Source: Bacteroidota bacterium | GTDB lineage: Bacteria; Bacteroidota; Bacteroidia; Chitinophagales; Chitinophagaceae | Direction of reading: 5' to 3' | NCBI GenBank assembly: GCA_018267925.1 | Contig: JAFDXO010000171.1 | Span: 1,084-65,083 of the forward strand | Length of the DNA stretch: 64,000 nt | In this document: in pieces, positions 4,904 to 42,710 of the stretch | Layout of the letters: every line of letters begins with the position of its first letter | Position numbering within the stretch: the first letter of the stretch is position 1 | Notes under the pieces: generated by a model | Seen by the model: the letters and a program-made list of their open reading frames with translations, nothing else | Told to the model about the DNA's origin: nothing | Database searches by the model: none | Program-made: the position numbers and the translations under genes

Positions 4904-4925
4904 TTTGATTGTTTTTTAAGAATGA

Positions 4926-5624: not shown

Positions 5625-5641
5625 AATTTATTATGGTGAGT

Positions 5642-5649
5642 CAAAAGTA
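5642..5649 (-). promoter_or_regulatory. candidate Bacteroidota -7 promoter box (TACTTTTG on minus strand) for the FHA/PP2C/kinase operon
   Basis: Exact match to TAnnTTTG, 17 nt upstream of the ATG at 5624. Confidence 0.35.
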
Positions 5650-5690
5650 TGTGCCGTAGATACAGCCTTTTTTATCAAATTATTGTTCGT

Positions 5691-6104: not shown

Positions 6105-6223
6105 TGATACTTGTAATTAGGGGAAAACAGGTTAACTGCCTTGTAAATACAATATACCATTAGCCATAGCTCTTAAAGGGAAAAAGATGCTATTCTACCA
6201 AAAACGATAGCTATTTGTAAATG

Positions 6224-6970
6224 CTATCCGACTAAGTTTAGATGAGAAAGTATTTGATCTTTATATGTTCTGCCTACGTTCAGCACTTTTTCTGTATCCA
6301 GAATGAGTTTACTTGCAGAGGGAATGTACTCTTTGACGTAGTTGATGTTTACGGCAAAACTTTGGTGGTTTCTAACGATAAAAGAGGAGCTAAGGCTTTG
6401 CAGCAATTTTTCCAAAGTGATTTTCGGGGCATACATTTTGTTCGTCGTATAGATTTTGCAATAAGCGTCCGCAACTTCTACATACCGTATATCGTGCGCC
6501 AATATTCTTTTGTAAGCGTTTTTATCTTTGATAAATAACTGTCCTTGCAGGAAATAACTTTTATCTATACCATTAATAAACAAGTCATTTTCCATAGCAA
6601 AATTCTCCATTGCCGTTTCCAAAAAATGCCAAATTTGTTTAGGCAGGAAACTACCCTTTGGTAGGAAATTGGCAGGCTTGGTGCTCATTGCCGCTTTGAA
6701 ATGCTTATGTTCCGAGCCGTAAAAATCGGTAAGGTAAATAAACGGTACTCGCCTATTTTTATTGATGTACCTGGCAAACTCTATTCCGTCTTTATCGCCG
6801 TTCAACTTGATGTCAATAAAAACCAATTCGGGATTTTGTGTAGTAAATAACTGCATGGCGATTTTTACATTATCTGCTATGTCTAAGACTTCGCAACCGA
6901 ATTTTGCCAGGTCGTTTTTCAGTTCTTTGGCAAAAAGCAGATTATCTTCTACGATAAGTACCTTCAACAT
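6224..6970 (-). CDS. two-component response regulator, receiver + LytTR output domain
   Basis: The receiver starts MLKVLIVEDN with phospho-acceptor context FIDIKL. The C-terminal LytTR region includes IRYVEVADAYCKIYT...VRNHQSFAVNINYV. Confidence 0.9.
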   Translation of the reverse strand: MLKVLIVEDNLLFAKELKNDLAKFGCEVLDIADNVKIAMQLFTTQNPELVFIDIKLNGDKDGIEFARYINKNRRVPFIYLTDFYGSEHKHFKAAMSTKPANFLPKGSFLPKQIWHFLETAMENFAMENDLFINGIDKSYFLQGQLFIKDKNAYKRILAHDIRYVEVADAYCKIYTTNKMYAPKITLEKLLQSLSSSFIVRNHQSFAVNINYVKEYIPSASKLILDTEKVLNVGRTYKDQILSHLNLVG

Positions 6971-6972
6971 GG

Positions 6973-8949: not shown

Positions 8950-9118
8950 AAGACATCTTAATAGGAGTTGGCTCGAAAAGTAAATTCTTTTTTACAATAT
9001 TCAAATAGTGTCCTTTTTCTAACAGTGGAAAAACTATTACAAGAGGTAATTGAAAATAGAGTTTGAATTCAAGCTACAAATGCAACACTATGGAAAAGAA
9101 ATAGCACTTTTATAACTT

Positions 9119-9153
9119 AAAAAAAAGTCCCAACAATTGCTGTTGAGACTTTT
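9119..9153 (-). terminator. rho-independent terminator downstream of hppA
   Basis: A 10-bp stem (9126-9135 / 9141-9150) with one pair that is G-U only on the minus-strand RNA. A T-run follows on the minus strand (A-run 9119-9126 on plus). Confidence 0.5.
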
Positions 9154-9171
9154 GAATATTGAAAATGAAAA

Positions 9172-11352
9172 TTATTTCGTTTTCACTATCATTTCTTTTT
9201 GAATTGGAGCTTTCTGACTTAAAGTATTTGATTTGGTTCCAAATAAGTGACCTAAAGTGGGTGCAATAACTAATGCTACAATAGACATCAATTTGATTAA
9301 GATGTTCATTGAAGGTCCGGATGTATCTTTAAAAGGATCACCCACCGTATCTCCAGTTACCGATGCTTTATGTGGTTCTGATTTTTTGTAGTAAATCTCA
9401 CCATTAATTTCTACACCTTTTTCAAAAGATTTTTTTGCATTATCCCAAGCACCGCCAGCATTGTTTTGAAACATTCCCATCAAAACACCACTAACGGTTG
9501 CGCCCGCAAGCATTCCACCTAAAGCTTCCGGCCCCATCAGAAAGCCAACGAGCAAAGGCGAAACTAAGGCGATAGCACCCGGTAAAACCATTTTAGCAAT
9601 AGAAGCTTGGGTTGAAATAGCCACACATTTTTCATACTCGGGCTTCCCTTTTCCTTCCATGATACCGGGAATTTCACGAAATTGACGACGAACCTCTTCC
9701 ACCATACTCATAGCAGCCTCGCCAACCGCACGAATGGCAAGAGAAGAAAAGATAAATGGAATCATGCCACCTAAAAATAGGGCAGCGAGGACTTGTGCTT
9801 TGTAAATGTCAATTCCTTGAATGCCGGCAACACCCACATAAGCAGCAAATAATGCTAAGGCAGTAAGTGCAGCCGATGCTATGGCAAATCCCTTACCCGT
9901 AGCGGCAGTTGTATTTCCTACGGCATCTAAAGTGTCTGTTTTTTCGCGTACATCTTTGGGTAGTTCACTCATTTCTGCAATCCCGCCTGCATTGTCGGCA
10001 ATAGGACCAAATGCATCAATAGCAAGCTGCATCGCAGTAGTAGCCATCATGCCTGCTGCGGCAATAGCTACACCATACAAGCCGGCAACATGATAAGATC
10101 CATAGATGCCACCAGCCAATACTAAAATAGGAAGAAATGTACTTTCCATTCCTACAGCTAAGCCGCCAATTACGTTAGTTGCATGACCTGTTGCAGATTG
10201 ACGAACAATAGACATCACCGGACGCTTACCCATGGCTGTATAGTATTCCGTGATGATACTCATCAGTGTACCTACGATTAAACCAATAATAATGGCATAA
10301 AACACATCCATTTTAGTAAAATCAAAACCACGTAAGGTCATGGACTCGGGTAGTATATAATTGCAAAGAAAATATGCAGAAATAGCAGTTAAAATAATAG
10401 ATCCCCAATTACCCATATTTAAAGCCTTTTGAACAGCGGATGTACTTACACCAACACTGTCCGAAACACGCACTAACCAAGTACCGATAATTGAAAAAAT
10501 GATACCTGTTCCGGCAATCAGCATGGGCAATAATATAGGAGCCATTCCACCAAAGTTATCCGACGAAATGGTTTCACGTCCTAACACCATTGTTGCTAAT
10601 ACCGTTGCTACATAAGAGCCGAAAAGGTCGGCACCCATACCGGCAACATCGCCCACATTGTCGCCCACATTATCTGCAATAGTTGCAGGATTGCGTGGAT
10701 CATCTTCCGGAATACCGGCTTCTACTTTACCTACTAAATCAGCACCCACATCCGCAGCCTTGGTATATATTCCACCACCTACGCGAGCAAATAAGGCAAT
10801 ACTTTCAGCACCGAGAGAAAAACCGGTTAATACTTCAATCGTTCTGGCCATTTCAGCACTATCTACAGCGGCTTCGGGAGCAAAAATCATTTTTAAAATG
10901 ATAAACAATCCACCTAAACCAAGCACTGCTAAGCCCGCAACGCCTAAACCCATAACAGCACCACCACCAAAAGAAACAGCTAATGCTTTACTAAGGCTTG
11001 TACGTGCGGCATTGGCCGTGCGAACATTTGCTTTGGTTGCAATTCGCATGCCTATAAAACCAGCTAATGCACTAAATACGGCTCCTACAATAAATGCAAT
11101 TGCAATTGACCAATGACTTTCAGCATTGCTATATCCCATAAACCCTAACAAAAGAGCTGCAATGACTACATAGTAACTCAAAATTTTGTACTCAGCTTTT
11201 AGAAAGGCCATAGCACCTTCGGCTATGTACTTTGCTATTTCTTTCATTCGGTCGTTTCCGGGGTCTTGTTTGCTAACCCACGAACCCTTGATCATCGTGT
11301 ACACCAAAGCTAATAAGCCAAATGCAGGCACGAGGTAAAAAATAGATTTCAT
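9172..11352 (-). CDS. hppA: membrane-bound proton-translocating pyrophosphatase
   Basis: A ~726-aa polytopic protein with [19 protein letters not shown] and [17 protein letters not shown] motifs. The first ATG is at 11352. The TTG at 11382 lies inside the predicted -7 box. Confidence 0.95.
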
Positions 11353-30058: not shown

Positions 30059-31531
30059 ATGGACAAGCACCTCTATAATATTACATCTAAAAATGAAGCA
30101 GAAGCAGTATGGGCAAAATGTTTGAGTATCATAAAAGATAATCTGAACTGGAGAACCTATCAAACATGGTTTGAGCCAATTAAGGCTGCCGCCTTGTCAG
30201 GCACAGTTTTGACCTTGCAAGTTCCCAGTCAGTTTTTTTATGAATGGTTGGAAGAGCATTATGTAGAGTTGATGGGAAAAACCATAAAACGTGTTTTAGG
30301 CCGCGAAGGCCAGTTAGAATATCGTATTCTAATGGAAGGTGCTTCTACTCAACGAAACCCCGCTGCCATTAATATTCCGGCTAGCAACTATCATAAGCCA
30401 TCTAAAGATTCAAACTATGTGGACATGCCCCTAAAATGGGATGATCCGTCTAACATAAAAACACCCTATGCTATTCCCGGATTGAAGAGAATGCAGATAG
30501 ACCCTCAATTGAATGCTAACTATACGTTTGAAAACTATGTAGAGGGCGATTGCAATAGAGTAGCCCGTTCTGCTGGATTACATGTAGCACAAAAGCCGGG
30601 TGCTACTTCATTTAACCCACTGGTAATCTTTGGTGGAGTTGGCTGGGGAAAAACTCATTTGGCACAAGCAATAGGAAATGAAGTTCGCAGATTGCATCCG
30701 AATAAAGCAGTACTTTATGTGAGTGCCGATAAATTTATCAACCAATTTATTGACCATTCCAAAAACAATGAAGTAAATGATTTCATTCACTTCTATCAAC
30801 TCATTGATGTGCTGATTTTGGACGATATTCATTTGTTTGTACCAGCAGCTAAATCTCAAGATGTGTTTTTTGCCATTTTCAATCATTTGCACCAAAGTGG
30901 TAAACAAATTATCCTCACAAGCGATACACCTCCCAAAGATATGGAAGGTATTCAGGAACGCCTGCTGAGCCGCTTTCGCTGGGGACTCAATGCCGATATT
31001 CAAGCTCCGGGCTTTGAAACCAGACAAGAAATTCTACGTCAAAGAATGAGACGGGAAGGATTAGAATTGCCTGATGATGTAGTGAAATATATTGCCTACA
31101 ATGTGCAATCCAATGTGCGTGAACTGGAAGGCGCATTGATAGCTTTATTTGCTCAATCTACACTAAACAGAAAAGAAGTTGATCTGGATTTGGCAAAACG
31201 AGTAATGAAGAATTTTGTAAAAACTGCCGCCAGAGAATTAACCATAGAAAATATTCAAAAATTGGTGTGTGAATACTTTCATATTCCCTATGACAGATTG
31301 TTAGCAAAAACTCGAAAACGAGAAGTAGTACAAGCACGTCAAATCACCATGTTTTTAGCAAAAAAATTTACAAAAAGTTCTCTCAAAAATATAGGAGAGC
31401 ATTTTGGTGGTTTCGATCACACAACGGTTATCCACTCTTGCCAAACGGTTGAAAATCTCATGCACACTGATGGCGAATACAAAGAAAACCTTTTAGAATT
31501 GCAGCAAAAGGTGCAACTAGCAAGTATTTAA
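30059..31531 (+). CDS. dnaA: chromosomal replication initiator protein DnaA
   Basis: AAA+ Walker A GGVGWGKTHL, LILDDIH, sensor motifs, and a C-terminal DnaA-box-binding domain (VVQARQITMFLAKK...GG.DHTTVIH). Confidence 0.97.
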   Translation: MDKHLYNITSKNEAEAVWAKCLSIIKDNLNWRTYQTWFEPIKAAALSGTVLTLQVPSQFFYEWLEEHYVELMGKTIKRVLGREGQLEYRILMEGASTQRNPAAINIPASNYHKPSKDSNYVDMPLKWDDPSNIKTPYAIPGLKRMQIDPQLNANYTFENYVEGDCNRVARSAGLHVAQKPGATSFNPLVIFGGVGWGKTHLAQAIGNEVRRLHPNKAVLYVSADKFINQFIDHSKNNEVNDFIHFYQLIDVLILDDIHLFVPAAKSQDVFFAIFNHLHQSGKQIILTSDTPPKDMEGIQERLLSRFRWGLNADIQAPGFETRQEILRQRMRREGLELPDDVVKYIAYNVQSNVRELEGALIALFAQSTLNRKEVDLDLAKRVMKNFVKTAARELTIENIQKLVCEYFHIPYDRLLAKTRKREVVQARQITMFLAKKFTKSSLKNIGEHFGGFDHTTVIHSCQTVENLMHTDGEYKENLLELQQKVQLASI

Positions 31532-31656: not shown

Positions 31657-31745
31657 GGTGAGGTGGGTGAGTGGCTGAAACCAATAGTTTGCTAAACTGT
31701 CGTACGGGTTAAACTGTACCGGGGGTTCGAATCCCCCCCTCACCG
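31657..31745 (+). tRNA. tRNA-Ser (anticodon GCU), class II with long variable arm
   Basis: I folded it by hand. Acceptor ggtgagg/cctcacc, anticodon stem atagt/actgt with loop ttGCTaa, variable arm with gtac/gtac stem, T-arm ggggg-ttcgaat-ccccc. CCA is not encoded. Confidence 0.9.
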
Positions 31746-31758
31746 CTGGTTTTTTTTT

Positions 31759-31832
31759 CGGGAAGTAGCGCAGGCCGGTAGCGCATCTGGTTTGGGACCA
31801 GGGGGTCGCAGGTTCGAATCCTGTCTTCCCGA
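31759..31832 (+). tRNA. tRNA-Pro (anticodon UGG)
   Basis: I folded it by hand. Acceptor cgggaag/cttcccg, D-arm gcgc/gcgc, anticodon stem tctgg/ccagg with loop ttTGGga, T-arm gcagg-ttcgaat-cctgt. CCA is not encoded. Confidence 0.9.
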
Positions 31833-31887
31833 CACACAAAAGCCGCAAATGCTTTATTATCAGCATTTTGCGGCTTTTCTATTTTTA
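31821..31887 (+). repeat. left attachment-site repeat (attL): last 12 nt of tRNA-Pro plus its terminator hairpin
   Basis: This 67-bp stretch recurs at 38602-38669 and is identical except for one extra T in the right copy. Confidence 0.85.
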
Positions 31888-31995
31888 TTTGTTGTCGGTT
31901 TGGTTGTCAATAAATCTCTAAAACTCCCTTTTCGACCTCTTATTTGCCTTTTATCTTATCCGTTTTGTTGCCATTACCGGAAACAAAAAACGGTT

Positions 31996-32034
31996 AAAAA
32001 AATCCGCCTTAACAATCTATGACTATTAAGGCGG
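31996..32034 (-). terminator. rho-independent terminator after the small-ORF pair at the element's left end
   Basis: ccgccttaa / ttaaggcgg forms a 9-bp stem (32004-32012 / 32026-32034), followed on the minus strand by a T-run (plus-strand A-run 31996-32002). Confidence 0.5.
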
Positions 32035-32090: not shown

Positions 32091-32312
32091 TTACTTCAAA
32101 TCGCTTATATCAATCAATGTTTTTTGCAGAAAATCAAAGACGGTGAAATAAGTTGTACGCCCGTTATTTTTCCAATATGCCTCTAAAAATTCCGCATCTG
32201 TTTGTTGTTTCAGCAATTCCAAAATATCCCATTGCAGATTATACAAGTCGTTATAATCAGTACCAACCCATTCAAACACCAACTTGTTTTCTTTTTCATT
32301 GTGCTGTATCAT
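32091..32312 (-). CDS. small acidic hypothetical protein (73 aa), element cargo
   Basis: The ORF shares a TAATG overlap with the upstream 88-aa ORF, and a terminator lies downstream. I see no recognisable motif. By my count it has about 13 acidic and 7 basic residues. Confidence 0.45.
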   Translation of the reverse strand: MIQHNEKENKLVFEWVGTDYNDLYNLQWDILELLKQQTDAEFLEAYWKNNGRTTYFTVFDFLQKTLIDISDLK

Positions 32313-32578
32313 TACATACCTCCCGTGTTTTGATTGTTTAATAATGCCTGAAACATAACCTTTGCATCGTCAATGGTAGGCAGCATTTCAGAAAGTAGCT
32401 GTAATGTGTAGTAGTTGGGTTCGCCCGTTGCATCTTCGCTTAGTTTGGTTGCCTGTATTGTAGATACAAGCCCTTGCAGCGTTTGCGTGTAGTCATTTGC
32501 CAGCCTAATAGCTGTTTTTTCTTCTGTGTAGGTGGGAAATTCTATTGCCCAACCTTTCGGCGTTACAATAATTGCCAT
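32312..32578 (-). CDS. small acidic hypothetical protein (88 aa), element cargo
   Basis: The ORF is preceded by its own leader and follows an upstream terminator. It is coupled to the 73-aa ORF and has no recognisable motif. Confidence 0.5.
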   Translation of the reverse strand: MAIIVTPKGWAIEFPTYTEEKTAIRLANDYTQTLQGLVSTIQATKLSEDATGEPNYYTLQLLSEMLPTIDDAKVMFQALLNNQNTGGM

Positions 32579-32581
32579 AAC

Positions 32582-32597
32582 GTATTAGATTTAGGAA
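32582..32597 (-). repeat. 16-bp direct repeat copy 1 (gtattagatttaggaa), 3 nt upstream of the 88-aa ORF start
   Basis: An exact 16-mer also occurs at 32717-32732, 135 bp away. Confidence 0.6.
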
Positions 32598-32716
32598 TTG
32601 AAAAACCCGTGTTTTAGGTGTCCTGCGTTCTAATACAAACGCCGTTGCCTTTCGGACTAACGCACCATCACACGGGCTTTTCAGTTGATAAACTGAATGA
32701 TTGTTTAACATTATGG

Positions 32717-32732
32717 GTATTAGATTTAGGAA
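32717..32732 (-). repeat. 16-bp direct repeat copy 2 (gtattagatttaggaa)
   Basis: Exact duplicate of 32582-32597, lying just downstream (minus sense) of the terminator at 32758-32794. Confidence 0.6.
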
Positions 32733-32757
32733 AGCCAAAGGTAGGCATTGAGCCATT

Positions 32758-32794
32758 AAAAAAGCAAAGGCGAAAACCTTTGCAAGTTTTCGCC
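32758..32794 (-). terminator. rho-independent terminator after the 107-aa HTH gene
   Basis: ggcgaaaac / gttttcgcc forms a 9-bp stem (32769-32777 / 32786-32794) with an 8-nt loop. On the minus strand it is followed by TTTGCTTTTTT. Confidence 0.55.
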
Positions 32795-32836
32795 CTCTAT
32801 GGTTGCGGGTTGATGTAATCGCCCCGCGTGTATATA

Positions 32837-33160
32837 CTATCCTTTCACGGCGGCATTATCATTTTCCCTTAGCTCCCGAATGTAGTAATAAACCATGCTC
32901 CGGCTTTTGCGTAGTGCCTTTGCTATGGCTGTATAACTCAATCCCTTTTGGTACAAGTTATAAGCCCGTTGCTTCAACGGCGTAGGCGCGGCGTTTTCGG
33001 CAAACTTGTATTGTGCTATCCAGCGTTGCACCGTTCGCGGGTTTGTATCTATCAGTTTGCCTATTTCCTTTGCGTTTAAGCCCCGCAAATGATATTGATA
33101 AGCCCTGCCTACCAATTCGGGCATTTTGTCGCTAATAGCGTGTTTTGTGTCGTTTTTCAT
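32837..33160 (-). CDS. protein made of two tandem HTH modules
   Basis: Residues ~15-51 and ~62-97 share one pattern: A..L...G.....I...L......V..YI. Copy 1 ends PRTVQRWIAQY and copy 2 ends RSMVYYYIREL. Confidence 0.65.
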   Translation of the reverse strand: MKNDTKHAISDKMPELVGRAYQYHLRGLNAKEIGKLIDTNPRTVQRWIAQYKFAENAAPTPLKQRAYNLYQKGLSYTAIAKALRKSRSMVYYYIRELRENDNAAVKG

Positions 33161-33402: not shown

Positions 33403-33921
33403 TTAACCGTTATTTTTCTTTAATCGCAAGCCCCGAAAGGGTTGTTTTTCTTTAATTCCGGTTGAATTGATATGCGGTTGATACGTTTTTTTTGCTTCAA
33501 AGTCTTTGATGTATCGTTGTACGGTGTATTTGGCACAACCCAGCAAGTCCGCTATTTCCTGAATATCAAATTTGCTGCCTGTATGCAGTCGCTCAATGAT
33601 AGCCCGTTTCTTAGTCATTGAGTAGCTGCCAGCTTCACGCACCCAGCGCGTTACCGTTCTTTCTTTCACTCCCAACATCAGGGCAATGGCTGTACCCGTG
33701 TACCGTCCCGAATTATGCAAACTCAACGCCTTTTCATGTAGCTGTTTTTTTTCGCGTTTTTTGTTGTGATTGGGAAAAGCTACTTTGAGCCAATACATAA
33801 CATTGGCGCGGCTTGCGCCTGTCTGTCTTGCAATTTGATGTTTGTTGGTAATGCCATTGCCAAACATTTCTATTGCTTGCGCCCGTTGTTGGGCTAACAA
33901 CATTTTCTTTGCTGTTTTCAT
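33403..33921 (-). CDS. protein made of three tandem HTH modules
   Basis: Three ~37-aa copies of the same module end in SRANVMYWLK, ERTVTRWVRE and KYTVQRYIKD. The ATG overlaps the Rep stop (ATGA). Confidence 0.65.
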   Translation of the reverse strand: MKTAKKMLLAQQRAQAIEMFGNGITNKHQIARQTGASRANVMYWLKVAFPNHNKKREKKQLHEKALSLHNSGRYTGTAIALMLGVKERTVTRWVREAGSYSMTKKRAIIERLHTGSKFDIQEIADLLGCAKYTVQRYIKDFEAKKTYQPHINSTGIKEKQPFRGLRLKKNNG

Positions 33922-35360
33922 TTTTCAACTTTGGTTTTATTGTTGGTGAATAATTGTAGATAATCCCGCGCCGCTTGCCCTGTAAGGGTTTCCGGCGGTT
34001 CGCTGCGTACCGTTGGTAATAGGTCTATGCGTTCTATTTTATCCAGCCAATCGCGGGTAATGTGTAGCTCCGAAACATGGAGCGTATCGGTATAGGTATT
34101 ACCGCTTGCATCTTTGGCGCGGTATGTAACGGCTATAAATTCATGTTCATTTTTCATTGCTTTGTTTATTTTAATTTTTAAATCCCGTCTGTGATTGCTG
34201 CCAGCGTTGCGGCATTTCTTACCCGCCTTTCCGTTTATGGCTTCGCTGCAATACCTACTTTGCGGGCGTTGGTGGTTTATGTTTTTTCCACACGAAAGAC
34301 AGCAACGCGGCGGCGGCATTTGTGCATTTTTTGCACCATTTATATTATTTATTTTTCTACTAAAAAAAGTTGCATTTTGATAGGGTGTTTTTGGAGTGTC
34401 TTTGTGGGACGTTTGCCCTGTACATTCAAGCAGTGCAAACGTCCCAATTTTTACCGCTTCATTTTCTTTTTTGGGGCGGTGCAAACGTCCTATAAATTCC
34501 GCTTCAAAAAGGGCGTTCCATGTACCGGAAATATAAGTTTCCAACTCCGGTATATTTCCGTAATGGCTAAGTAATTCGTTCCACTTTTTGAGGTGGTAAT
34601 ATCTTTTCTTTCGGTTGATGTTTACCCAGCTTCGCGGGTTGTTGTAGTACAACCATTGTTTTTGTTCGCGGTCGGTCAATCGGTCAAGATTAACGGTGGT
34701 GTCCGTCCACACAATATTTTTTACCGCGTTCAACAAAACGGCTTTTAGTGGATATACTTTTTCAGGGTTTTGTAAATCTGCCATTGTTTTAATACCGTAT
34801 TGCTCTAAGGCTTGCATCTTGTTTACCGATACTTCAAAGCGTAGCATATTACCTACGTCAACACCGCTTTGTTTGGCTTTGTCGTACACCTTTACGCTAT
34901 ACCTGTCAAGGCACACGCCTACGCCGTTTCGCAATAGACGTTTGTTTATAGGCTCAAACGTCTTACCGCCGAATGAAACAATATTTTTCAGTAGCCGGAT
35001 AGGCGGATAAGGCAAGGGAATATTTACGCCTATTTCCAACCCGTGTATTTCGCACTCCTTAGCATCAATGCCGAATGTGTCCACAATGCCGGATATGGTG
35101 TTTTGCAGGGCTGCCATAGTGTAAGTGTCTGCATTATGCAGCCCGTAATTATTGTACTTGTGCAAGCTGCCAGCAAGGTTAAAAGCATAGCCGCCGCCGC
35201 GTGTGGGTTTAAGGTCAAAACGTAAGTTTCTAATTTCGGCGTGTCGGTTATCATTCACGCGCTTACCTGTGCTTTCGTTCACGGTTATTTCCCAGCAAGG
35301 CAAGGCGGGCAAATGACTATTTGCCGTGCCTATGTACGTTGCTTTTATACCGTCTATCAT
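33918..35360 (-). CDS. putative rolling-circle replication initiator (gene II/X- or Rep_trans-like) with C-terminal Cys-rich zinc-ribbon-like region
   Basis: MIDGIKATY..., then LAGSLHKYNNYGLHNADTY (compare GNP.KF.QGHN.FG in phage gene II proteins), then YSVKVYDKAKQ...MLRFEVSV (compare the YDK/R.E motif of Rep_trans). The C-terminus carries CCLSCG...YCSE...KCRN. This is a by-eye assignment only. Confidence 0.5.
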   Translation of the reverse strand: MIDGIKATYIGTANSHLPALPCWEITVNESTGKRVNDNRHAEIRNLRFDLKPTRGGGYAFNLAGSLHKYNNYGLHNADTYTMAALQNTISGIVDTFGIDAKECEIHGLEIGVNIPLPYPPIRLLKNIVSFGGKTFEPINKRLLRNGVGVCLDRYSVKVYDKAKQSGVDVGNMLRFEVSVNKMQALEQYGIKTMADLQNPEKVYPLKAVLLNAVKNIVWTDTTVNLDRLTDREQKQWLYYNNPRSWVNINRKKRYYHLKKWNELLSHYGNIPELETYISGTWNALFEAEFIGRLHRPKKENEAVKIGTFALLECTGQTSHKDTPKTPYQNATFFSRKINNINGAKNAQMPPPRCCLSCGKNINHQRPQSRYCSEAINGKAGKKCRNAGSNHRRDLKIKINKAMKNEHEFIAVTYRAKDASGNTYTDTLHVSELHITRDWLDKIERIDLLPTVRSEPPETLTGQAARDYLQLFTNNKTKVEK

Positions 35361-35369
35361 TGCCGCCCG

Positions 35370-35717
35370 TTATGCTTCGCCCTGTATTGTGAACGCCGTA
35401 AGCGTAAGCGTGTACAGTTTTTGCAAGGTTTCTAAAGCAATTCCCAAAAGTTCCGACACGGTACTATATACCATTTCCGGCGCGTGTTGTAGTTGCTCCA
35501 ATTCTAACAACATGGCAACGGTGGCGGCGGCATTATCCGGCACGGCTGTTAGCTCCGGCATTGGTAGTTGCAGATATTCCGTTACCTCTCTCATGGTTTC
35601 GGCAAGGGCGGCGCGTTTGGTTTCCGGCGTTGGTTTGTGTGTTGTCTGCATCAATGGAGCAAAGGCATCAAAAGCCGCTTTGATAGCTCCAATTTTCGCC
35701 GTTAATAGCTTATTCAT
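35370..35717 (-). CDS. hypothetical protein (115 aa), Ala/Leu-rich helical
   Basis: The ATG at 35717 overlaps the Xis-like stop (ATGA). It sits in the xis-rep operon and has no recognisable motif. Confidence 0.5.
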   Translation of the reverse strand: MNKLLTAKIGAIKAAFDAFAPLMQTTHKPTPETKRAALAETMREVTEYLQLPMPELTAVPDNAAATVAMLLELEQLQHAPEMVYSTVSELLGIALETLQKLYTLTLTAFTIQGEA

Positions 35718-36013
35718 GCTAAACGCTCCCTTTTGCTGCATTGCGCTTTGGCGGCGGCTTTTACTTCGCTCAATAGAAAACGGGTTTTGTTTGCAATCTT
35801 GTAAGGTTTCAAGATACCCGCGTTAATCCACGCATGAACGGTAGGCAAGGATATTTTAAACATATCCGCTACGTCTTGCCTTGTAATGTAATCTTCCGGC
35901 TCTTTTGGTTGGGCAGTCTTGCTAATTACGTCAAGCCGTTTGTTTATGGCTTCAAATTGCTGTAAAAGTATTGAACTGTCTATTTGTTCAATTTGGATTA
36001 GTTGCTTTTGCAT
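35714..36013 (-). CDS. excisionase-type (MerR/HTH_17-like) DNA-binding protein
   Basis: ITRQDVADMFKISLPTVHAWINAGILKPYKIANKTRFLLSEV is the classic Xis/AlpA-type HTH. The first ATG is at 36013. Confidence 0.7.
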   Translation of the reverse strand: MQKQLIQIEQIDSSILLQQFEAINKRLDVISKTAQPKEPEDYITRQDVADMFKISLPTVHAWINAGILKPYKIANKTRFLLSEVKAAAKAQCSKRERLA

Positions 36014-36062
36014 AGCATAAAGTATTTTATGCCGCAAAGCTGAATTTACTTGTAAAGAAAAG

Positions 36063-36089
36063 CCCGTAAGTTACGGCGTAACATACGGG
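36063..36089. promoter_or_regulatory. 27-bp near-perfect palindrome between the RteC-like gene and the xis-like gene (terminator and/or operator)
   Basis: cccgtaagttacg-g-cgtaacatacggg pairs at 12 of 13 positions. It is flanked by A-runs and T-runs on both sides. Confidence 0.5.
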
Positions 36090-36143
36090 CAAAACGTAAG
36101 CGGTGTAATGGTTTGAGCCATAAATATATTTTTCTGCTATGGC

Positions 36144-37136
36144 TTATTTTGTCATTTTATCTTTTAAAAAGTTATTGATTGCAGCGTTAAGTTTTGAGGT
36201 AAATAATTCTTTGGGCGGTTTGTCTTGCAGGTCGTTAATATTTATGCTATGCCTTTTCTCATTAAACGGCGTGGGTGTTTTCTTTTCGGGTGCTAATACT
36301 TCTACCAATGGAGCAAAACGGCGTATTATTTCCGTTTCGGGAGTGCCTACAAATACAGTTAATGCCAAAGCCTTTATTAACTCTGAAAATTCATTTTGCG
36401 TTCCTTTCCATGTCAAAGGAGCGGCGGCGGTTTGTGGTGTGGCTTCATTCATGTTTTTCTCTTTATAGTTTATGGCAGCCTCTATAATGTCGGCAAATTC
36501 TTTTTCTGTGTAAAACTTTGGTTTATGGTATTCGTTTTTCCCATGTCCGTCTTTTGCGTTGAAAATTGCAAGTTGCTTTTGATTTTCGCCCGTTATTCCG
36601 TTAATCTCAATCAGCAATATTTTAATGTATAGTAAGTCAATTACTTTATTCATTTCTGTTTTGCATTGCTCTATTAATACATTGTCCGGCTGCAACCTTA
36701 TTTCATTCTCTTTTCTTTCCAAAAGTATTTTATCATTGAAAGTAATTGTTTGCGGCGGTGCATATTTCACAACCGTTTCAAGTTCCTTTTGCTCTTTGAT
36801 AATGCTTTCAAAATAGGCTTTCCTTTCATTCAAATTACCAATATCGCGGGCGGTGTATATCTGTTTTCTGAAAGTTGTATTATATGTATGGTTGTTTATT
36901 GCTTTCGCGTTTTCTTTCGTTTCCTTAATAAACCTTTCCGCAAGTTCTTTACTCATACACTCCTCTATTCCCTCAAAATCAAATGCGTTTTCTTTTTCCG
37001 CCTCATTATAGGCGGTTGTTTCAAAGTATATTATAGGCGGTCTTATTCCGTCTGCTATTTTTTCAATATCAATATTCAACGCCTTAGCGGGTGTTTTCTT
37101 TGCTGTCATTTTCTTTGCTTTTAAAACAATTTTCAA
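36144..37136 (-). CDS. hypothetical protein with RteC-like C-terminal region
   Basis: The C-terminal LTWKGTQNEFSELIKAL ... FTSKLNAAINNFLKDKM resembles the L.W.GS...L.ELIYAL ... FLD.L...L..RM pattern of Bacteroides RteC regulators. The N-terminal two-thirds is unassigned. Confidence 0.4.
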   Translation of the reverse strand: MKIVLKAKKMTAKKTPAKALNIDIEKIADGIRPPIIYFETTAYNEAEKENAFDFEGIEECMSKELAERFIKETKENAKAINNHTYNTTFRKQIYTARDIGNLNERKAYFESIIKEQKELETVVKYAPPQTITFNDKILLERKENEIRLQPDNVLIEQCKTEMNKVIDLLYIKILLIEINGITGENQKQLAIFNAKDGHGKNEYHKPKFYTEKEFADIIEAAINYKEKNMNEATPQTAAAPLTWKGTQNEFSELIKALALTVFVGTPETEIIRRFAPLVEVLAPEKKTPTPFNEKRHSININDLQDKPPKELFTSKLNAAINNFLKDKMTK

Positions 37137-37142
37137 ACGGGT

Positions 37143-38411
37143 TTAAAATTCATTTTGCGGCGCGGCGTTCCAATACTTAGCGACAATTTCCGCGTGTTCG
37201 GTTTCGGATAGTTTTACATATTTCAAAAACACACTTTCTTTTTTGTGTCCGGTTATTTTCATTACGCTTTGGGTGGGTATTCCGGCGCGTATGGCATTGG
37301 TAGCAAAGGAACGGCGGGCGGTGTGCGTAGTGATAAGCTGCCATTTTTCGTAAACTTCATTTACCAGCTTACCGCCTTTGGTTTGTTGCTTTCCTACTTT
37401 CTCAACTATTCCAGCTCTCTTACCTACGTCTTTAATGTAATCGTTTATTTTTTGGTCGGATAATTTTGGGGGCGTATTGCCGCCGTACTTGCTCAAAATT
37501 GCCTTTACGGTTTGGTGTATGGGAATTACTACGCGCCCGCCTGTTTTGTGCTGTATAAGGTCTATTTTGTCCCCTTTGATATTGTACGGTTTGAGGTTGT
37601 TATAATCCGATACGCGCAAGCCTGTATAACAACCTATCAAAAATAAATCCCGTGCGCGGTCGTACCCGTTTTGGGTGTCCAACTTTACCGCCTCAATCCT
37701 TTTCAGTTCGTCCGGTGTTAGGTAAATGTCTTGCGCTTGCTCCCGTGCCGCCTTGAATAAACGCGGGTTAATAACGTCCGCTTCAAAAGGTATTTTTTCT
37801 AATTGCGCGGCGCGTAGGAATTGCCGGAAATTATCAATATGCTTTGCAATGTTGTTTACTGAATAGCCTTTTACAGACGTGAGAAAATCCCGAAAATCTG
37901 AAATTGTTTGTAGGCTTATTGTGTCAAATTCCAATTGCTCCCTGTTTTCTTTCTCAAAGGCTTTCAGCACGTCAAAGGTTGTGTTATATTCCTGTATAGT
38001 GCGGTAACTGATAACCCGCCCTGTTTTGGGATTAATACGGGTTTTTGAGGCTTCAATGAATTTTGCCAGCCAATTCCAAAACGTAGCCTTTTCAATTACC
38101 GTTTTTCCCGTCCACAAGTCAAGCCCTGTTTTTAATAGGTCTTTTGTTATGGTTTGTCTTTGGGCAATCCCCGTTTCATAAATTCGTTTGGTTTCTGTCT
38201 TTAGGTCTTTCAGGTAGTTGTTAATTTCGTCCCTGTTGGGTTCGTCAATAACATTTCTTACTTCATAGGTTTTGCCGTTCCAATGCTTAGGTAATATGTT
38301 GTAGCTTGTCGGATACACAAACTTGTTTCCCGCCCAGCGAACAATTAGATAAACTTTTTCGGGTCGTTTGCTGTTTTGACGGCGTAGGTTAAAACGACAA
38401 TTCAATTTCAT
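37143..38411 (-). CDS. tyrosine-type site-specific integrase (Bacteroidota arm-binding + SAM-like + catalytic domains)
   Basis: Catalytic residue context: GLRVSD (Arg), HTARRSFATN (H..R), GHKK and LKYV (Tyr). The N-terminal KVYLIVRWAGNKF arm-type domain is present. The gene is adjacent to attR. Confidence 0.92.
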   Translation of the reverse strand: MKLNCRFNLRRQNSKRPEKVYLIVRWAGNKFVYPTSYNILPKHWNGKTYEVRNVIDEPNRDEINNYLKDLKTETKRIYETGIAQRQTITKDLLKTGLDLWTGKTVIEKATFWNWLAKFIEASKTRINPKTGRVISYRTIQEYNTTFDVLKAFEKENREQLEFDTISLQTISDFRDFLTSVKGYSVNNIAKHIDNFRQFLRAAQLEKIPFEADVINPRLFKAAREQAQDIYLTPDELKRIEAVKLDTQNGYDRARDLFLIGCYTGLRVSDYNNLKPYNIKGDKIDLIQHKTGGRVVIPIHQTVKAILSKYGGNTPPKLSDQKINDYIKDVGKRAGIVEKVGKQQTKGGKLVNEVYEKWQLITTHTARRSFATNAIRAGIPTQSVMKITGHKKESVFLKYVKLSETEHAEIVAKYWNAAPQNEF

Positions 38412-38601
38412 ATCAACAAAAATACCTTAAAAAGTTAAACGTTGTTGTTTTCGTTGTCGTTTTTTCTTTACTTTTCTTTATTTTCTCTTACCTTATTTAA
38501 TCATTACACAAAACATATATACTTTGTAAGCATTGATAATAAAGGAGTTTTAGCCGCATTTTCGTATAATTTAAAAAAATGCAATTAAATACTTTGTCGT
38601 A

Positions 38602-38669
38602 CTGTCTTCCCGACACACAAAAGCCGCAAATGCTTTATTATCAGCATTTTGCGGCTTTTTCTATTTTTA
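38602..38669 (+). repeat. right attachment-site repeat (attR): orphan copy of the tRNA-Pro 3' end plus terminator hairpin
   Basis: A 68-bp copy of 31821-31887 with one extra T. No tRNA body lies upstream of it. Confidence 0.85.
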
Positions 38670-40426: not shown

Positions 40427-40870
40427 ATGGCTAAAGAAATCTCTGGCTTTGTAAAACTCCAAGTAAAAGGAGGACAAGCCAATCCGGCACCGCCAATCGG
40501 TCCCGCGCTCGGTTCCAAGGGCGTAAACATCATGGAATTCTGCAAGCAGTTTAATGCCCGCACACAAGATAAAATGGGCAAGGTGCTTCCGGTAGTACTA
40601 ACCGTTTATACGGACAAGTCATTTGACTTTGTCATCAAAACACCACCGGCTGCCGTTCAATTGATGGAAGCTGCCAAAATTCAATCGGGTTCTAAAGAGC
40701 CAAACCGTAACAAGGTTGGAAAGGTTTCTTGGGCTCAGGTTACAGAAATCGCTAAAGATAAAATGGCAGATCTAAACTGTTTCACTGTAGAAAGTGCCAT
40801 GAGTATGGTTGCAGGTACAGCACGCAGCATGGGTCTTACTGTTGAAGGCGAAAAACCAAGTGCACAATAA
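40427..40870 (+). CDS. rplK: 50S ribosomal protein L11
   Basis: [31 protein letters not shown] is canonical L11. Confidence 0.97.
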
Positions 40871-40903
40871 TCCATTGATTCACCTCATTAAAATCTTGTA
40901 GCA

Positions 40904-41593
40904 ATGGCTATTACAAAGAAAAGAAAGGCTGTAGAGGCTAAACTCGATAAAAACAAACAATACACACTGTCTGAGGCTGCTACGTTGGTAAAAGACGTAA
41001 ACCTAACTAAATTCGACAGTTCTGTAGATATGCACATCCGTTTGGGTGTAGATCCTAAAAAGGCAGATCAGGCAATTCGTGGAACAGTTACCCTGCCACA
41101 TGGAACCGGTAAAACAAAGCGTGTATTGGTGCTTTGTACTCCCGATAAAGAAGCAGAAGCAAAAGCTGCCGGTGCTGATTATGTAGGACTGGATGAATTT
41201 GTACAAAAAATTGATGGTGGCTGGACCGATATTGATGTAATCATCGCTACACCATCAGTAATGCCAAAAATTGGTCGTCTTGGTAAAGTCCTCGGACCTC
41301 GTAACTTGATGCCCAATCCTAAAACCGGAACTGTAACCAATGATGTTGCCGCAGCCGTAACAGATGTAAAAGGTGGTAAAATTGCATTCAAAATAGATAA
41401 GGCAGGAATCATTCATGCCTCTATCGGACGGATTTCTTTTACACCCGAAAAAATTGCTGAAAACGCTCAAGAATTAATCAATACACTGGTGCGCATGAAA
41501 CCCGCAACCGCTAAAGGTATTTACCTGAAAGGTATCAGTATGGCCAGCACCATGAGTCCGGGATTAGCAATTGACACAAAATCTGTTGGATAA
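40904..41593 (+). CDS. rplA: 50S ribosomal protein L1
   Basis: F..SVD..I.LGVDP.K.DQ..RG...LPHGTGK is canonical L1. Confidence 0.97.
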
Positions 41594-41682
41594 TCAGTTC
41601 AATTGCCTGATAAAAATTAATTTGTTTCACCAGTGTGCAAGGATTGTAAAACCAACAATTAGCACATTAGCAAACTAAAAAA

Positions 41683-42198
41683 ATGACAACTGCTCAAAAA
41701 AATGAAGTAATAGAGATGCTGAAAGAGAAATTCTCTCAGTACAATAACTTCTACATTACCGATACAGAATCTCTCACTGTTCAACAAGTGAGCACACTTC
41801 GCCGTCATTGCTTTGACAAGCAAGTGGAAATGAAAGTGGCAAAAAATACGCTTATCAAAAAAGCGCTCGAAAGCCTTGATAGCGAAAAATATGCCGGTGT
41901 TTATGATGCCTTGCATAACGTTACGGCATTGATGTTTAGCGAAAGCCCTAAAGAACCGGCTCTCATACTTTCATCTTTCCGAAAAGCGGCAAAAGGGGAA
42001 AAACCGGTATTGAAGGCTGCTTATATTGGTGGCGAAATTTATAGCGGCGACAACCAATTGGTTGCTCTTACGAATATCAAGACGAAAAACGAGCTTATCG
42101 GCGAAGTTATCGGCTTGTTGCAATCGCCTGCTAAACGTGTATTGGCTGCTTTGTTGCACCATCACGAAAAGCAAAATGAAGGCGCTACTGCTGAATAA
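41683..42198 (+). CDS. rplJ: 50S ribosomal protein L10
   Basis: Its position between rplA and rplL, its length and the LR......VEMKV.KNTL motif support the call. Confidence 0.93.
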   Translation: MTTAQKNEVIEMLKEKFSQYNNFYITDTESLTVQQVSTLRRHCFDKQVEMKVAKNTLIKKALESLDSEKYAGVYDALHNVTALMFSESPKEPALILSSFRKAAKGEKPVLKAAYIGGEIYSGDNQLVALTNIKTKNELIGEVIGLLQSPAKRVLAALLHHHEKQNEGATAE

Positions 42199-42335
42199 CT
42201 AAACATTTTTTAACACACTTTCGGGTGTGTTGACCAAACGATATACCAATGCCTTTGAGGTTCAAATAAGGCAATATTTATTAACCATGCCGCCGGAGCA
42301 TGAATGGCAATGAAGGCGGTTAAAAAGTAAAACAC

Positions 42336-42710
42336 ATGGCTGACGTAAAAGCATTAGCAGAATCATTAGTTGCACTTACCGTGAAAGAAGTGCAAGAATT
42401 AGCAGACGTATTGAAAGCAGAATATGGCATCGAGCCTGCTGCAGCTGCAGTAGTAGTAAGTGCTGGCGGAGATGGCGGCGGAGCTGCTGTTGAAGAAAAA
42501 ACAGCTTTCAATGTAGTATTGAAAAGCGCAGGTGCTTCAAAACTGAACGTTGTTAAGATTGTAAAAGAATTAACCGGTCTTGGCTTGAAAGAAGCAAAAG
42601 AATTGGTTGACGGTGCACCTAAAAATGTAAAAGAAGGTGTTAGTAAAGCAGAAGCTGAAGACCTGAAAGCCAAGCTTACAGAAGCTGGTGCTGAAGTGGA
42701 AATCGCTTAA
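42336..42710 (+). CDS. rplL: 50S ribosomal protein L7/L12
   Basis: An Ala-rich hinge is followed by K..VIK.V....[24 protein letters not shown]...GA.VE. Confidence 0.97.

Follow-up and report, generated by a model that had tools for sequence, protein, structure and literature searches.

What allows a small chromosomal island that carries an integrase and a replication-type protein, with no recognisable machinery for transfer or packaging, to move between genomes? The question is raised by a locus in a Bacteroidota bacterium of the family Chitinophagaceae (GenBank assembly GCA_018267925.1, contig JAFDXO010000171.1, positions 1,084 to 65,083, forward strand). This stretch of 64,000 nucleotides (nt) is referred to below as the window, and coordinates are those of the window unless a related locus is named. 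An original prediction, made by reading the letters of the window, had put forward positions 33403-38411 as the core of a candidate satellite or minimal replicative integrative element, with genes for an integrase (int), an RteC-like protein, an Xis-type helix-turn-helix (HTH) protein, a small open reading frame (ORF), a Rep-like protein and a triple-HTH protein. The analysis described here places these genes in an element of 6,781 bp belonging to a widespread family, without a prior name, of small Bacteroidota integrative elements found at the 3' ends of tRNA genes. Its largest protein is well supported, from its modelled structure, as a predicted nickase with the fold shared by Rep_trans initiators and the gene II protein (gpII) of filamentous phages, and the best candidate for its nick site is a hairpin inside its own gene.

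An integrative element at a tRNA-Pro gene

A repeat search returned two perfect direct repeats of 58 nt (100% identity, family D1) spaced 6,781 bp apart, which bears out the size of 6.8 kb given in the original prediction. The features that mark the ends of the element and its site of insertion are as follows.

30059-31531: dnaA, adjoining the tRNA pair (ORF list)
31657-31746: tRNA-Ser(GCU), adjoining tRNA-Pro
31759-31833, plus strand: tRNA-Pro(UGG), the integration target (ARAGORN; Rfam tRNA)
31821-31878: attL, a perfect 58-nt repeat made up of the last 13 nt of tRNA-Pro and the downstream terminator hairpin (repeat search, spacing 6,781)
31891-31908: putative arm-type integrase-binding repeats GTTGTCG / GTTGTC, just inside attL
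37143-38411, minus strand: tyrosine integrase, 422 aa (Pfam Phage_integrase 7e-14, Phage_int_SAM_5 7e-10, Arm-DNA-bind_5 5e-5; PHROG 1 integrase 9e-32)
38442-38459: putative arm-type repeats GTTGTTG ... GTTGTCG, between attR and int
38602-38659: attR, the second copy of the 58-nt repeat (repeat search; sequence read)

The 3' end of tRNA-Pro(UGG) carries attL, in agreement with the predicted site at a tRNA-Pro gene, and the int product has the arm-binding, SAM-like and catalytic domains of a tyrosine integrase, as had been read from the sequence. Counterparts of the putative arm-type repeats were found at both ends of two relatives, L006 and L008. All genes of the element lie on the minus strand, including the six ORFs of the original prediction, which occupy the positions given for them. 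The predicted order from int to the triple-HTH gene is present, but it does not make up the whole element, which extends beyond the interval 33403-38411 down to position 31879 and there includes a c4-2 RNA as well as a double-HTH gene and a pair of small ORFs. No family match to a relaxase, coupling protein, type IV secretion system (T4SS), primase, capsid or large terminase was obtained in the element with Pfam, NCBIfam and PHROGs, and a canonical MobP or MobV relaxase was found neither in the element nor in its relatives. The predicted lack of a relaxase, T4SS, capsid and large terminase thus agrees with the family searches, but its first part is unsafe, since MOB_T relaxases have the Rep_trans fold too. 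That the locus is a small integrative element, intact and autonomous, is well supported by these sequences.

The att repeat measures 58 nt here and 12-25 nt in the relatives, and the 45 nt downstream of the tRNA (31834-31878), including the tRNA terminator hairpin, are copied exactly in the element (38615-38659). This exact copy of the flank suggests either a recent integration or an attP with captured host flank. A search for the empty attB site gave no exact match to the attR flank in the genome contigs scanned. The surroundings are core chromosome, with dnaA directly upstream of the tRNA pair (30059-31531) and rplK-rplA-rplJ-rplL about 2 kb downstream (40427-42710). The same dnaA / tRNA-Ser / tRNA-Pro arrangement is found at the related locus L019, and L004 and L008 lie beside the same tRNA-Ser/tRNA-Pro pair.

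A predicted nickase with the fold of rolling-circle initiators

The 480-aa ORF (33918-35360, minus strand), called Rep below, gave no match in Pfam, NCBIfam or PHROG. A model of the protein was built with AlphaFold2 (AF2) on a family alignment of 34 sequences, and three parts were distinguished in it, here given with the predicted local distance difference test (pLDDT).

34491-35360, minus strand: N-terminal catalytic domain, aa 1-290, gpII/Rep_trans fold (AF2 pLDDT >90; Foldseek; alignment)
34320-34490, minus strand: disordered linker, aa 291-347 (pLDDT <50; poorly conserved except for 'TF.PLEC')
33918-34319, minus strand: C-terminal domain, aa 348-480, with a CxxC...C...C zinc ribbon, a basic helix (CRNxxSNxRR) and an alpha/beta module (pLDDT ~85)

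When the model was compared with the PDB using Foldseek, matches with E<=1e-3 were obtained solely to chains A-D of 4CIJ, the Rep_trans initiator RepSTK1 (E 1.8-4.4e-4, prob 1.0), the next match having an E value of 0.05. Among viral models (BFVD) the top matches were Inoviridae G2P/Rep proteins, with E values of 4.6e-9, 4e-6 and 1e-4. The family alignment, with homologues down to 24% identity, has 22 invariant positions, among them D3, H67, N76, E109, N113, Y159, K161, R174 and E176 in the catalytic domain and C354, C357, C371, C383, R384 and N389 in the C-terminal domain, and the motifs of Rep follow the order N-terminal MIDG, LEIGVN, VKxYDK and LRxE. An alignment of staphylococcal and enterococcal Rep_trans proteins from plasmids (PLSDB) has invariant D46, D142 (RLDLACD), Y191-N-K193 (IRIYNKK) and E214 (WRVEIE). 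The residues D3, E109, Y159-D-K161 and E176 of Rep and the residues D46, D142, Y191-N-K193 and E214 of RepC share this order and a similar spacing. The active site of RepDE consists of the Tyr together with D46, D142 and E214, and its motif III is YxxK (PMC13107129).

At the N-terminus of Rep, the motifs MIDG, GS.HK..N.G.HN and LRFE are co-linear with Ff gpII, and hhalign against five inovirus gpII proteins gave weak support, in an alignment (P 0.008, prob 5%) of 154 co-linear columns that takes in three motifs and misaligns the Tyr region. The link to rolling-circle initiators is thus drawn from fold and motif order and not from sequence statistics. The peptides quoted in the original prediction, LAGSLHKYNNYGLHNAD and VKVYDK...LRFEVSV, both occur in the translation, and the resemblance to gene II/X and Rep_trans proteins that they had suggested by eye stands in structure and in motif order, but not at the level of sequence, where none of the 34 members has the corresponding Pfam match. 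The extra Cys-rich C-terminal half that had been noticed is likewise there, in the form of the zinc ribbon, and weak zinc-ribbon/DUF7678 matches were seen for this half in family members. The C-terminal zinc-ribbon domain is presumed to bind the origin. In Rep_trans initiators the origin-binding determinant is C-terminal, and most MOB_T relaxases have an N-terminal HTH (PMC9371924).

A candidate nick site inside rep

Within the linker-coding part of rep (aa 305-320) lies a hairpin that is the best candidate for the site of nicking, a view well supported by DNA folding and by comparison with relatives.

34405-34446, minus strand (rep coding strand): candidate nick site (double-strand origin or oriT), a hairpin with 16-bp arms and its loop at 34421-34430 (DNA folding; relatives)

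On the rep coding strand the hairpin reads TGGGACGTTTGCACTG-cttgaatgta-CAGGGCAAACGTCCCA. Folded as DNA it has an energy of -17.3 kcal/mol (z -6.2, with 0 of 200 shuffles as good) and is the strongest hairpin in the rep gene, and CTTGAATGTA occurs once in the element, in this hairpin. The loop motif CTTG(A/T)AT was found at the same place in 17 relatives, or 18 family members with the window, and in most of them it is flanked by arms that pair but differ in sequence, as in L001, with GCAACCTTTTTACCG/CGGTAAAAAGGTTGC, and in L017, whose 18-bp stem reaches z = -10.3. The stems covary over 13 sequences, with two to four Watson-Crick types in several columns (GC/CG/AT in column 12; TA/CG/AT/GC in column 9), and the encoded peptide varies along with them. 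In two more distant loci, L009 and L010, the corresponding part of rep contains another strong hairpin. In the records fetched for known origins, the pT181 origin hairpin AACCGGCTActctAATAGCCGGTT (IR-II) is found on the rep coding strand, within the sequence that encodes RepC, and that of Ff, with the loop gttctttaata, is placed just upstream of gene II. Nick sites of both Rep_trans and MOB_T proteins sit in hairpin loops (PMC9371924).

The peptide 'TF.PLEC' (aa 307-313) is conserved inside the otherwise unconserved disordered linker and matches the loop at 34421-34430. Its part 'PLEC' is the translation of CTTGAATGT, the hairpin-loop DNA, and the conservation of the peptide appears to be a by-product of selection at the DNA level that mimics a protein motif. 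The linker-coding DNA of rep at the related locus L023 has exact 19-nt direct repeats (4503-4521 / 4561-4579, 58 nt apart, in the coordinates of that locus) and three tandem repeats of ~12 nt (4620-4661). Their iteron-like appearance suggests that some lineages have an origin of greater complexity.

A widespread family and a probable circular form

Rep belongs to a very large family without annotation. An exhaustive profile search returned 3,709 clusters (50% identity) at E<=1e-3, of which 1,824 reached E<=1e-30. All 59 Rep relatives obtained in a word-indexed search are annotated as 'hypothetical', the named sources being Chitinophaga, Puia, Flavitalea, Paraflavitalea and Bacteroidia metagenome-assembled genomes, and no paper describing the family was found in the literature searched. 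Searches of genomes, metagenomes and virus collections, one of the locus searches being seeded with 12 closer sequences, yielded 23 related loci, and the order int, HTH_17, Rep is kept in 20 of these. Rep varies between 390 and 522 aa in the family. Next to int, most relatives have an ORF of 156-359 aa, usually 220-310, without a family match; the HTH_17 gene is likewise kept in most, and the slot just upstream of rep is conserved as well, with ORFs of 87-154 aa in most relatives. The slot after rep usually holds a variable DNA-binding gene. The cargo of relatives includes HEPN, Abi_C, a PIN toxin, a Panacea antitoxin, a resolvase, an esterase and inserted insertion sequence (IS) elements.

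Nine relatives, of 5.3-13 kb, were delimited by att repeats. At eight genome loci a repeat of 13-25 nt starts exactly at the 3' end of a tRNA gene and recurs upstream of int, the tRNAs being those for Pro (three anticodons), Glu, Arg, Met and Leu, and L025 was delimited by a 13-nt core. At further loci, outside these nine, a tRNA-Pro, Arg, Phe or Leu gene lies beside the element. The flanks of the delimited relatives are housekeeping genes. No match to a relaxase, T4SS, coupling protein, capsid or terminase was obtained in any of the 23 related loci. The original prediction had proposed a survey for syntenic int-rteC-xis-rep cassettes at tRNA-Pro; int-xis-rep modules were found at several tRNA genes, and the finding of nine delimited relatives at different tRNA genes, with housekeeping flanks, speaks against a remnant of a larger conjugative or phage genome.

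A contig of 6,881 bp (L026, Logan SRR25400517_1722044) has an exact terminal overlap of 30 nt, made up of the 13-nt att core and 17 nt of the int-proximal arm. The overlap is an attP junction, in which the tRNA-derived core is joined to the arm and not to tRNA sequence, whereas the integrated copy L025 runs from the core into the tRNA body. With a core of 13 nt and assembly by 31-mers, this junction can have come only from reads that span attP, and its source is therefore a circle of 6,851 bp or a tandem array. Excision would be expected to yield a junction of this kind. L025, L027, L028, L030 and L031 are integrated or truncated copies, and no further circles were found among them. Rep had no match among the plasmids of PLSDB (tblastn), which therefore offer no evidence that the family serves free plasmids. 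A single 'phage' record in GenBank has a homologue, MT835707.1 (L010; 28 kb, 'Bacteriophage sp.', UNVERIFIED). Its positions 3800-9950 hold an int / AlpA-HTH_17 / Rep module and a gene with Bro-N and ANT domains, beside a second integrase and DUF4099/DUF3945 genes. As an unverified gut scaffold with the same integrative module, it was rejected as a phage genome and is probably a fragment of a gut Bacteroidales chromosome.

The int-adjacent gene, the Xis-type gene and the smaller genes

The remaining protein-coding genes and the terminator-like sequences of the element are listed in the order in which they are read.

36144-37136, minus strand: int-adjacent gene, 330 aa (321 aa from an ATG at 37109), assigned a function by no family
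36062-36090, minus strand: palindrome with a T-run, terminator-like (sequence; a terminator scan matches the core 36076-36064)
35714-36037, minus strand: HTH_17 Xis/AlpA-type DNA-binding protein, 107 aa (Pfam HTH_17 1.3e-10; TIGR01764 excise 6e-4; PHROG excisionase families)
35370-35741, minus strand: small ORF, 123 aa (or 115 aa from an ATG at 35717, overlapping the xis stop as ATGA)
33403-33921, minus strand: triple-HTH protein, 172 aa, its start overlapping the rep stop as ATGA (Pfam HTH_23 1e-14, HTH_29, HTH_28, Terminase_5-type HTH)
32837-33160, minus strand: double-HTH protein, 107 aa (Pfam HTH_23 3e-12, HTH_28, HTH_38)
32766-32797, minus strand: terminator-like hairpin after the double-HTH gene (14-pair stem and T-run)
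32312-32578, minus strand: 88-aa ORF, downstream of c4-2 (ORF list)
32091-32312, minus strand: 73-aa ORF, its start overlapping the stop of the 88-aa ORF by 1 nt (ORF list)
32004-32034, minus strand: terminator-like hairpin ending the last transcription unit (14-pair stem and T-run)

Terminator-like hairpins lie 3' of the 330-aa ORF, of the double-HTH gene and of the last ORF, and their placement suggests three transcription units. The original prediction had counted three ATGA stop/start overlaps. Two of these are true within the interval 33403-38411, between xis and the 115-aa ORF (35717-35714) and between the 480-aa ORF and the triple-HTH gene (33921-33918), but the third junction, between the 88-aa and 73-aa ORFs at 32312, is a 1-nt TAATG overlap outside the interval, and int and the 330-aa ORF do not overlap. 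The palindrome that had been noticed between the 330-aa ORF and the HTH ORF is present, reads GCCCGTATGTTACG-C-CGTAACTTACGGGC and runs on into TTTTCTTT. It looks like an intrinsic terminator that separates the int/330-aa unit from the xis-rep unit. As there is a T-run behind it and it stands between two transcription units, a terminator was favoured over an origin; an operator is possible.

The 330-aa protein gave no match in Pfam, NCBIfam or PHROG. Just three homologues of it were found, and a homologue search with its C-terminal 100 aa returned nothing; the C-terminal ~90 aa are nevertheless common to the proteins at the same position in L020, L027, L002, L004 and L008. The AF2 model has a pLDDT of 56, and this low-confidence model gave no fold match. 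The gene is, to judge from these comparisons, fast-evolving. The protein had been called RteC-like, and its 'LxWKG..SELIKAL' bears a by-eye resemblance to the C-terminus of RteC. RteC (PF09357) was not matched by the full-length protein at E<=1, nor at E<=10 by its C-terminal 100 aa or by nine same-position proteins of relatives, and with the results from NCBIfam, PHROG and the model the label failed on every count. CTnDOT excision is controlled by RteC, Xis2c/2d and Exc. The RteC domain was not found in the 330-aa protein, and the proposed echo of CTnDOT in an RteC-like/Xis pairing has therefore lost its RteC half, which no test supported. The Xis half is sound, the HTH protein being of the HTH_17/excisionase type by Pfam, NCBIfam and PHROG. 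More generally, the Pfam searches that had been suggested for each ORF matched the HTH_17 and integrase families but left Rep_trans, Phage_CRI/Phage_X and RteC unmatched, and structure prediction, also suggested, related the 480-aa model to rolling-circle initiators but produced a poor 330-aa model.

The slot held by the triple-HTH gene here is occupied in relatives by a different gene, with an AntA domain in L003 (and homologues in L004 and L006) and with Bro-N and ANT domains in L010. The double-HTH gene has tblastn matches in ten related loci. The 88-aa ORF has a 44%-identical homologue in L016 and no family match. Genes of the cI-like (HTH_3/HTH_19) or P22_Cro-like type were seen in three distant members (in the coordinates of those loci: L018, 6782-7450, minus strand; L022, 11094-11381, minus strand; L027, 5172-5480). 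In L018 the cI-like gene replaces the int-adjacent gene and is divergently transcribed, like the immunity module of a phage or of an integrative and conjugative element (ICE).

A c4-2 RNA and its putative target

A small RNA gene separates the 88-aa ORF from the terminator that follows the double-HTH gene.

32601-32679, minus strand: c4-2 RNA, a relative of the phage P1 c4 antisense RNA (Rfam RF02944, 65 bits against a gathering score of 41, E 4e-13, full length)
32582-32595, minus strand: putative c4-2 target CCTAAATCTAATAC, 4 nt upstream of the ATG of the 88-aa ORF, with a second copy at 32717-32730

The RNA falls in the c4 antisense RNA clan (Rfam CL00128) with a score above gathering. Five relatives also have it (46-62 bits), at 12814-12891 in L007, 10922-11014 in L017, 10683-10757 in L020, 8131-8205 in L023 and 6170-6243 in L027, and in all five, as in the window, it follows the double-HTH gene and precedes one or two small ORFs. 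The loop of its second hairpin, GUAUUAGA, is complementary to UCUAAUAC, which lies within the 14-nt repeat CCTAAATCTAATAC. In phage P1, c4 RNA blocks translation of icd-ant, the antirepressor operon. By analogy, c4-2 looks like a P1 immI-like switch that may act on the 88-aa and 73-aa ORFs. The mechanical ORF list also contained an 83-aa ORF at 32505-32756 (minus strand), which overlaps the c4-2 RNA and its upstream target repeat and is probably not a gene.

Proposed cycle of the element and alternative explanations

The reading towards which we lean, without great confidence, is that of an intact tRNA-targeting element that excises, replicates by the rolling circle in circular form and depends on a helper for its spread. 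Excision and rolling-circle replication are its well-supported parts, on in silico evidence. A signal, such as infection by a helper phage or stress, would activate the HTH_17 protein and the operon, and Int, together with the product of the adjacent gene and/or the HTH_17 protein, would excise the element as a circle. Rep would bind through its zinc-ribbon domain and Tyr159 would nick the loop of the hairpin in its own gene, with D3, E109 and E176 holding a metal ion. The 3'-OH would then prime rolling-circle replication by host enzymes, by which the circle would be kept and single-stranded DNA or concatemers made. The c4-2 RNA would pair with the ribosome-binding region of the 88-aa ORF and so control the last two small genes. 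Since the element encodes no transfer or packaging machinery, a helper would be needed for it to spread, and the most likely route would be headful packaging of concatemers into the capsids of a helper phage, as for the PICMI (phage-inducible chromosomal minimalist islands) and the marine VEIMEs.

As to the route of transfer, layout and defence cargo together with the c4 RNA and the antirepressor-type genes led us to rank a phage satellite first, MOB_T-like mobilisation second and a satellite of a filamentous phage third. The phage-type parts in the family comprise the c4-2 RNA, AntA and Bro-N/ANT domains, P22_Cro-like and cI-like HTH proteins and the HEPN, Abi_C, PIN and Panacea cargo. On this basis the family may represent the first phage satellites recognised in Bacteroidota, of PICMI layout, replicating by the rolling circle, travelling as concatemers in helper capsids and using c4 RNA and antirepressors to sense or manipulate the helper, a proposal that we advance tentatively, with the balance of probability somewhat against it. 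The classification as a satellite or minimal replicative element made in the original prediction has thus been strengthened by the small size, the stand-alone nature and the PICMI layout.

A number of observations weigh against the helper-dependent, rolling-circle reading. At the level of the protein, the Foldseek TM-scores are modest (0.43-0.47 on the target) and the rmsd (root-mean-square deviation) is high, the equivalence of the catalytic residues comes from motif order and not from superposition, and Rep_trans (PF02486), Phage_CRI and Phage_X (PF05144, PF05155) were matched at E<=1 in Pfam by none of the 34 members; phmmer and profile searches of PDB sequences gave nothing but zinc-ribbon noise, and hhalign against four staphylococcal or enterococcal Rep_trans sequences was not significant (prob 1.3%). 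At the level of the origin, the hairpin is weak or absent in the intact loci L002 and L016 and weak in the decayed L008; the loop differs from the canonical nick sequence CT'AA, although it resembles it; and the loop motif also encodes the peptide LEC/LEY, so that selection on the protein could account for some of its conservation. Nor was a single-strand origin identified. The evidence for circularity comes from one contig of a short-read metagenome, and a tandem duplication would give the same junction. As for a phage helper, no terS, capsid-redirection or interference gene was recognised, and nothing in IMG/VR or in GenBank phage records places the family in virions: two of 2.9 million IMG/VR contigs have a homologue, neither with structural genes or terminal repeats, and no structural phage genes were found in the part of MT835707.1 that was examined.

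Conjugative elements are common in Bacteroidota, and this counts for a reading of the locus as an integrative mobilisable element (IME), in which the 480-aa protein would be a MOB_T-like relaxase, the hairpin its oriT and rolling-circle replication a by-product, as it is with NicK of ICEBs1 and Orf20 of Tn916, the nicked strand being exported after excision by the T4SS of a co-resident conjugative element. The Rep_trans fold is that of the MOB_T proteins, which combine the role of relaxase with that of initiator of rolling-circle replication (PMC5704250, PMC9371924), and Rep could therefore itself be a relaxase. Many Streptococcus IMEs consist of little beyond an integrase and such a protein (PMC5704250), and the small ORF upstream of the nickase could encode an accessory factor of the relaxosome. 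Against this, no coupling protein or transfer gene was found in the 23 related loci, Rep starts directly with its catalytic domain and has a C-terminal zinc ribbon in place of the usual N-terminal HTH of MOB_T, MOB_T systems use coupling proteins of the Firmicutes TcpA type, the Bacteroidetes IMEs known in 2017 have MobP or MobV relaxases, and neither the c4-2 RNA nor the antirepressor domains would be expected. We regard mobilisation of this kind as unlikely. A derivative or satellite of an inovirus, comparable to RS1 of CTXphi, having kept a gpII-like Rep, regulators and an integrase and dependent on a helper inovirus for coat and assembly, with the hairpin as plus-strand origin and/or packaging signal, would fit the best structural matches (Inoviridae G2P, E 4.6e-9), the placing of all genes on one strand, the motifs co-linear with Ff gpII and the antirepressor-type genes beside rep in relatives. 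RstC of RS1 is a parallel to these last genes. However, neither the element nor its relatives yielded a Zot/pI ATPase, a single-stranded-DNA-binding protein or a coat protein of the small hydrophobic kind, these hosts have no known helper inovirus, and an arm-binding tyrosine integrase with an Xis is as typical of the islands and satellites of tailed phages. We consider this origin improbable.

Two further explanations would do away with replication or with autonomy. In one of them the 480-aa protein is a DNA-binding regulator with a TBP-like fold and not a nuclease, the island is non-replicative, and the hairpin acts in RNA or is merely coding. Such a view is in keeping with the absence of sequence-level membership in a Rep family, the modest TM-scores and the fact that the fold is common to TBP-fold proteins (PMC13107129). 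It is difficult to reconcile with the Tyr-x-Lys, the two acidic residues and the N-terminal Asp, which are invariant in 34 sequences and stand in the Rep_trans order, with fold matches that, where significant, are all to replication initiators and never to TBP, with stems that covary as the peptide changes, or with the separately assembled circle contig, and we give it little credence. The other explanation takes the locus for what decay has left of a larger prophage or conjugative element, and could point to L008 (Paraflavitalea), a decayed copy in which int, the int-adjacent gene and rep are all frameshifted. It is contradicted by the perfect 58-nt repeats and intact ORFs of the window copy, by the same core in the nine delimited relatives (5.3-13 kb) at different tRNA genes and by the closed circular copy, and it can scarcely be upheld.

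Many genomic islands are without a known means of transfer, and recent work suggests that most of them are 'hitchers' on helper phages or conjugative elements. The family described here provides an abundant and concrete case of such islands in Bacteroidota, with a candidate active site (Y159), a 42-nt candidate origin, att sites and a small set of genes. If the assignment of Rep is correct, the Rep_trans/gpII superfamily would gain a bacterial branch invisible to sequence profiles, parallel to the archaeal Rep-Arvir (2026), and Rep would serve as a marker for annotating thousands of small islands with defence-type cargo (HEPN, Abi, PIN, Panacea). As an integrative-replicative vector, the compact int / HTH_17 / rep / ori module could be useful in Chitinophagaceae and their relatives, for which there are few genetic tools.

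Comparison with known systems

Elements of the NBU/Tn4555 type have a canonical MobP or MobV relaxase, with or without a primase, and inovirus prophages have a Zot/pI ATPase and small hydrophobic coat proteins. Neither relaxase was found in the element or its relatives, no ATPase family was matched in the element, and its small ORFs are, by reading, not hydrophobic. The pSAM2-type elements of actinomycetes share the arrangement int-xis-rep with rolling-circle replication, integrate at tRNA-Pro and replicate after excision; in contrast to the present element, their Rep is of another family and they have an FtsK-like transfer gene of their own.

With the Rep_trans initiators (pT181 RepC/RepD, RepSTK1; PF02486) and gpII, Rep shares the fold, the order N-terminal Asp / acidic beta-strand / Y-x-K / R-x-E, a C-terminal region presumed to bind DNA and, as in pT181, a hairpin-loop origin candidate on the rep coding strand within rep. 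It differs from them in having no sequence-profile match, in a zinc ribbon that follows a disordered linker of ~55 residues, in the loop CTTG(A/T)AT and in being part of an integrative element instead of a plasmid or virus. The Rep-Arvir / RepSNJ2 proteins of archaeal pleolipoviruses offer a close parallel, being Rep_trans-like initiators recognisable only by structure, on a tRNA-integrating element that replicates after excision, and the evidence for them likewise consisted of fold and motifs until mutagenesis confirmed it (PMC13107129). In contrast, however, they are archaeal, belong to the DUF7845 family and come from true viruses with structural genes.

An integrase with a Rep_trans-fold nickase is also found in streptococcal IMEs and, as NicK and Orf20, in ICEBs1 and Tn916, where the nickase serves both maintenance of the excised circle and transfer (PMC5704250, PMC9371924). 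Many streptococcal IMEs consist of an integrase and a Rep_trans/MOB_T protein, with a blurred boundary between initiator and relaxase, whereas all Bacteroidetes IMEs known in 2017 have canonical MobP/MobV relaxases (PMC5704250). The MOB_T proteins of streptococci and other Firmicutes usually have an N-terminal HTH, often a TcpA partner and a match to PF02486, none of which is seen here; the fold is present in Rep, but the protein starts directly at the MIDG... catalytic domain and its extra domain is the C-terminal zinc ribbon. Some MOB_T relaxases, NicK among them, also lack the HTH (PMC9371924), and its absence therefore does not exclude MOB_T.

The marine VEIMEs, which number in the thousands (<5-16.8 kb), have an integrase, an excisionase and replication genes but no capsid genes, are packaged as concatemers, in keeping with rolling-circle replication, and count Flavobacteria among their hosts (PMC9618062); they are defined by their presence in virions, whereas the window element is known from its sequence. 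Closest in layout are the PICMI of Vibrionaceae, which have about 6-10 genes with ATGA overlaps, namely int, a variable gene that adjoins or overlaps it and is required for excision, alpA, a small gene, a primase gene and one more gene, and no terS, capsid or interference genes (PMC10803314). Their replication is rolling-circle-like and gives circles and concatemers that are packaged by the headful into helper capsids, and they have been proven by experiment to be satellites (PMC10803314). The order int / int-adjacent gene / AlpA-HTH_17 (PF05930 or PF12728) / small gene / replication gene is the same in the window, where the 330-aa gene takes the place of the PICMI int-adjacent gene iolg/icg. 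In PICMI, however, the replication gene encodes a primase (DUF3987/DUF5906) and the site is next to fis; the window element has a protein of gpII/Rep_trans fold with a zinc ribbon and lies at a tRNA 3' end in Bacteroidota. It differs from PICMI in both the primase and the fis site, and is thus a variant of the PICMI layout and not a member of the PICMI themselves.

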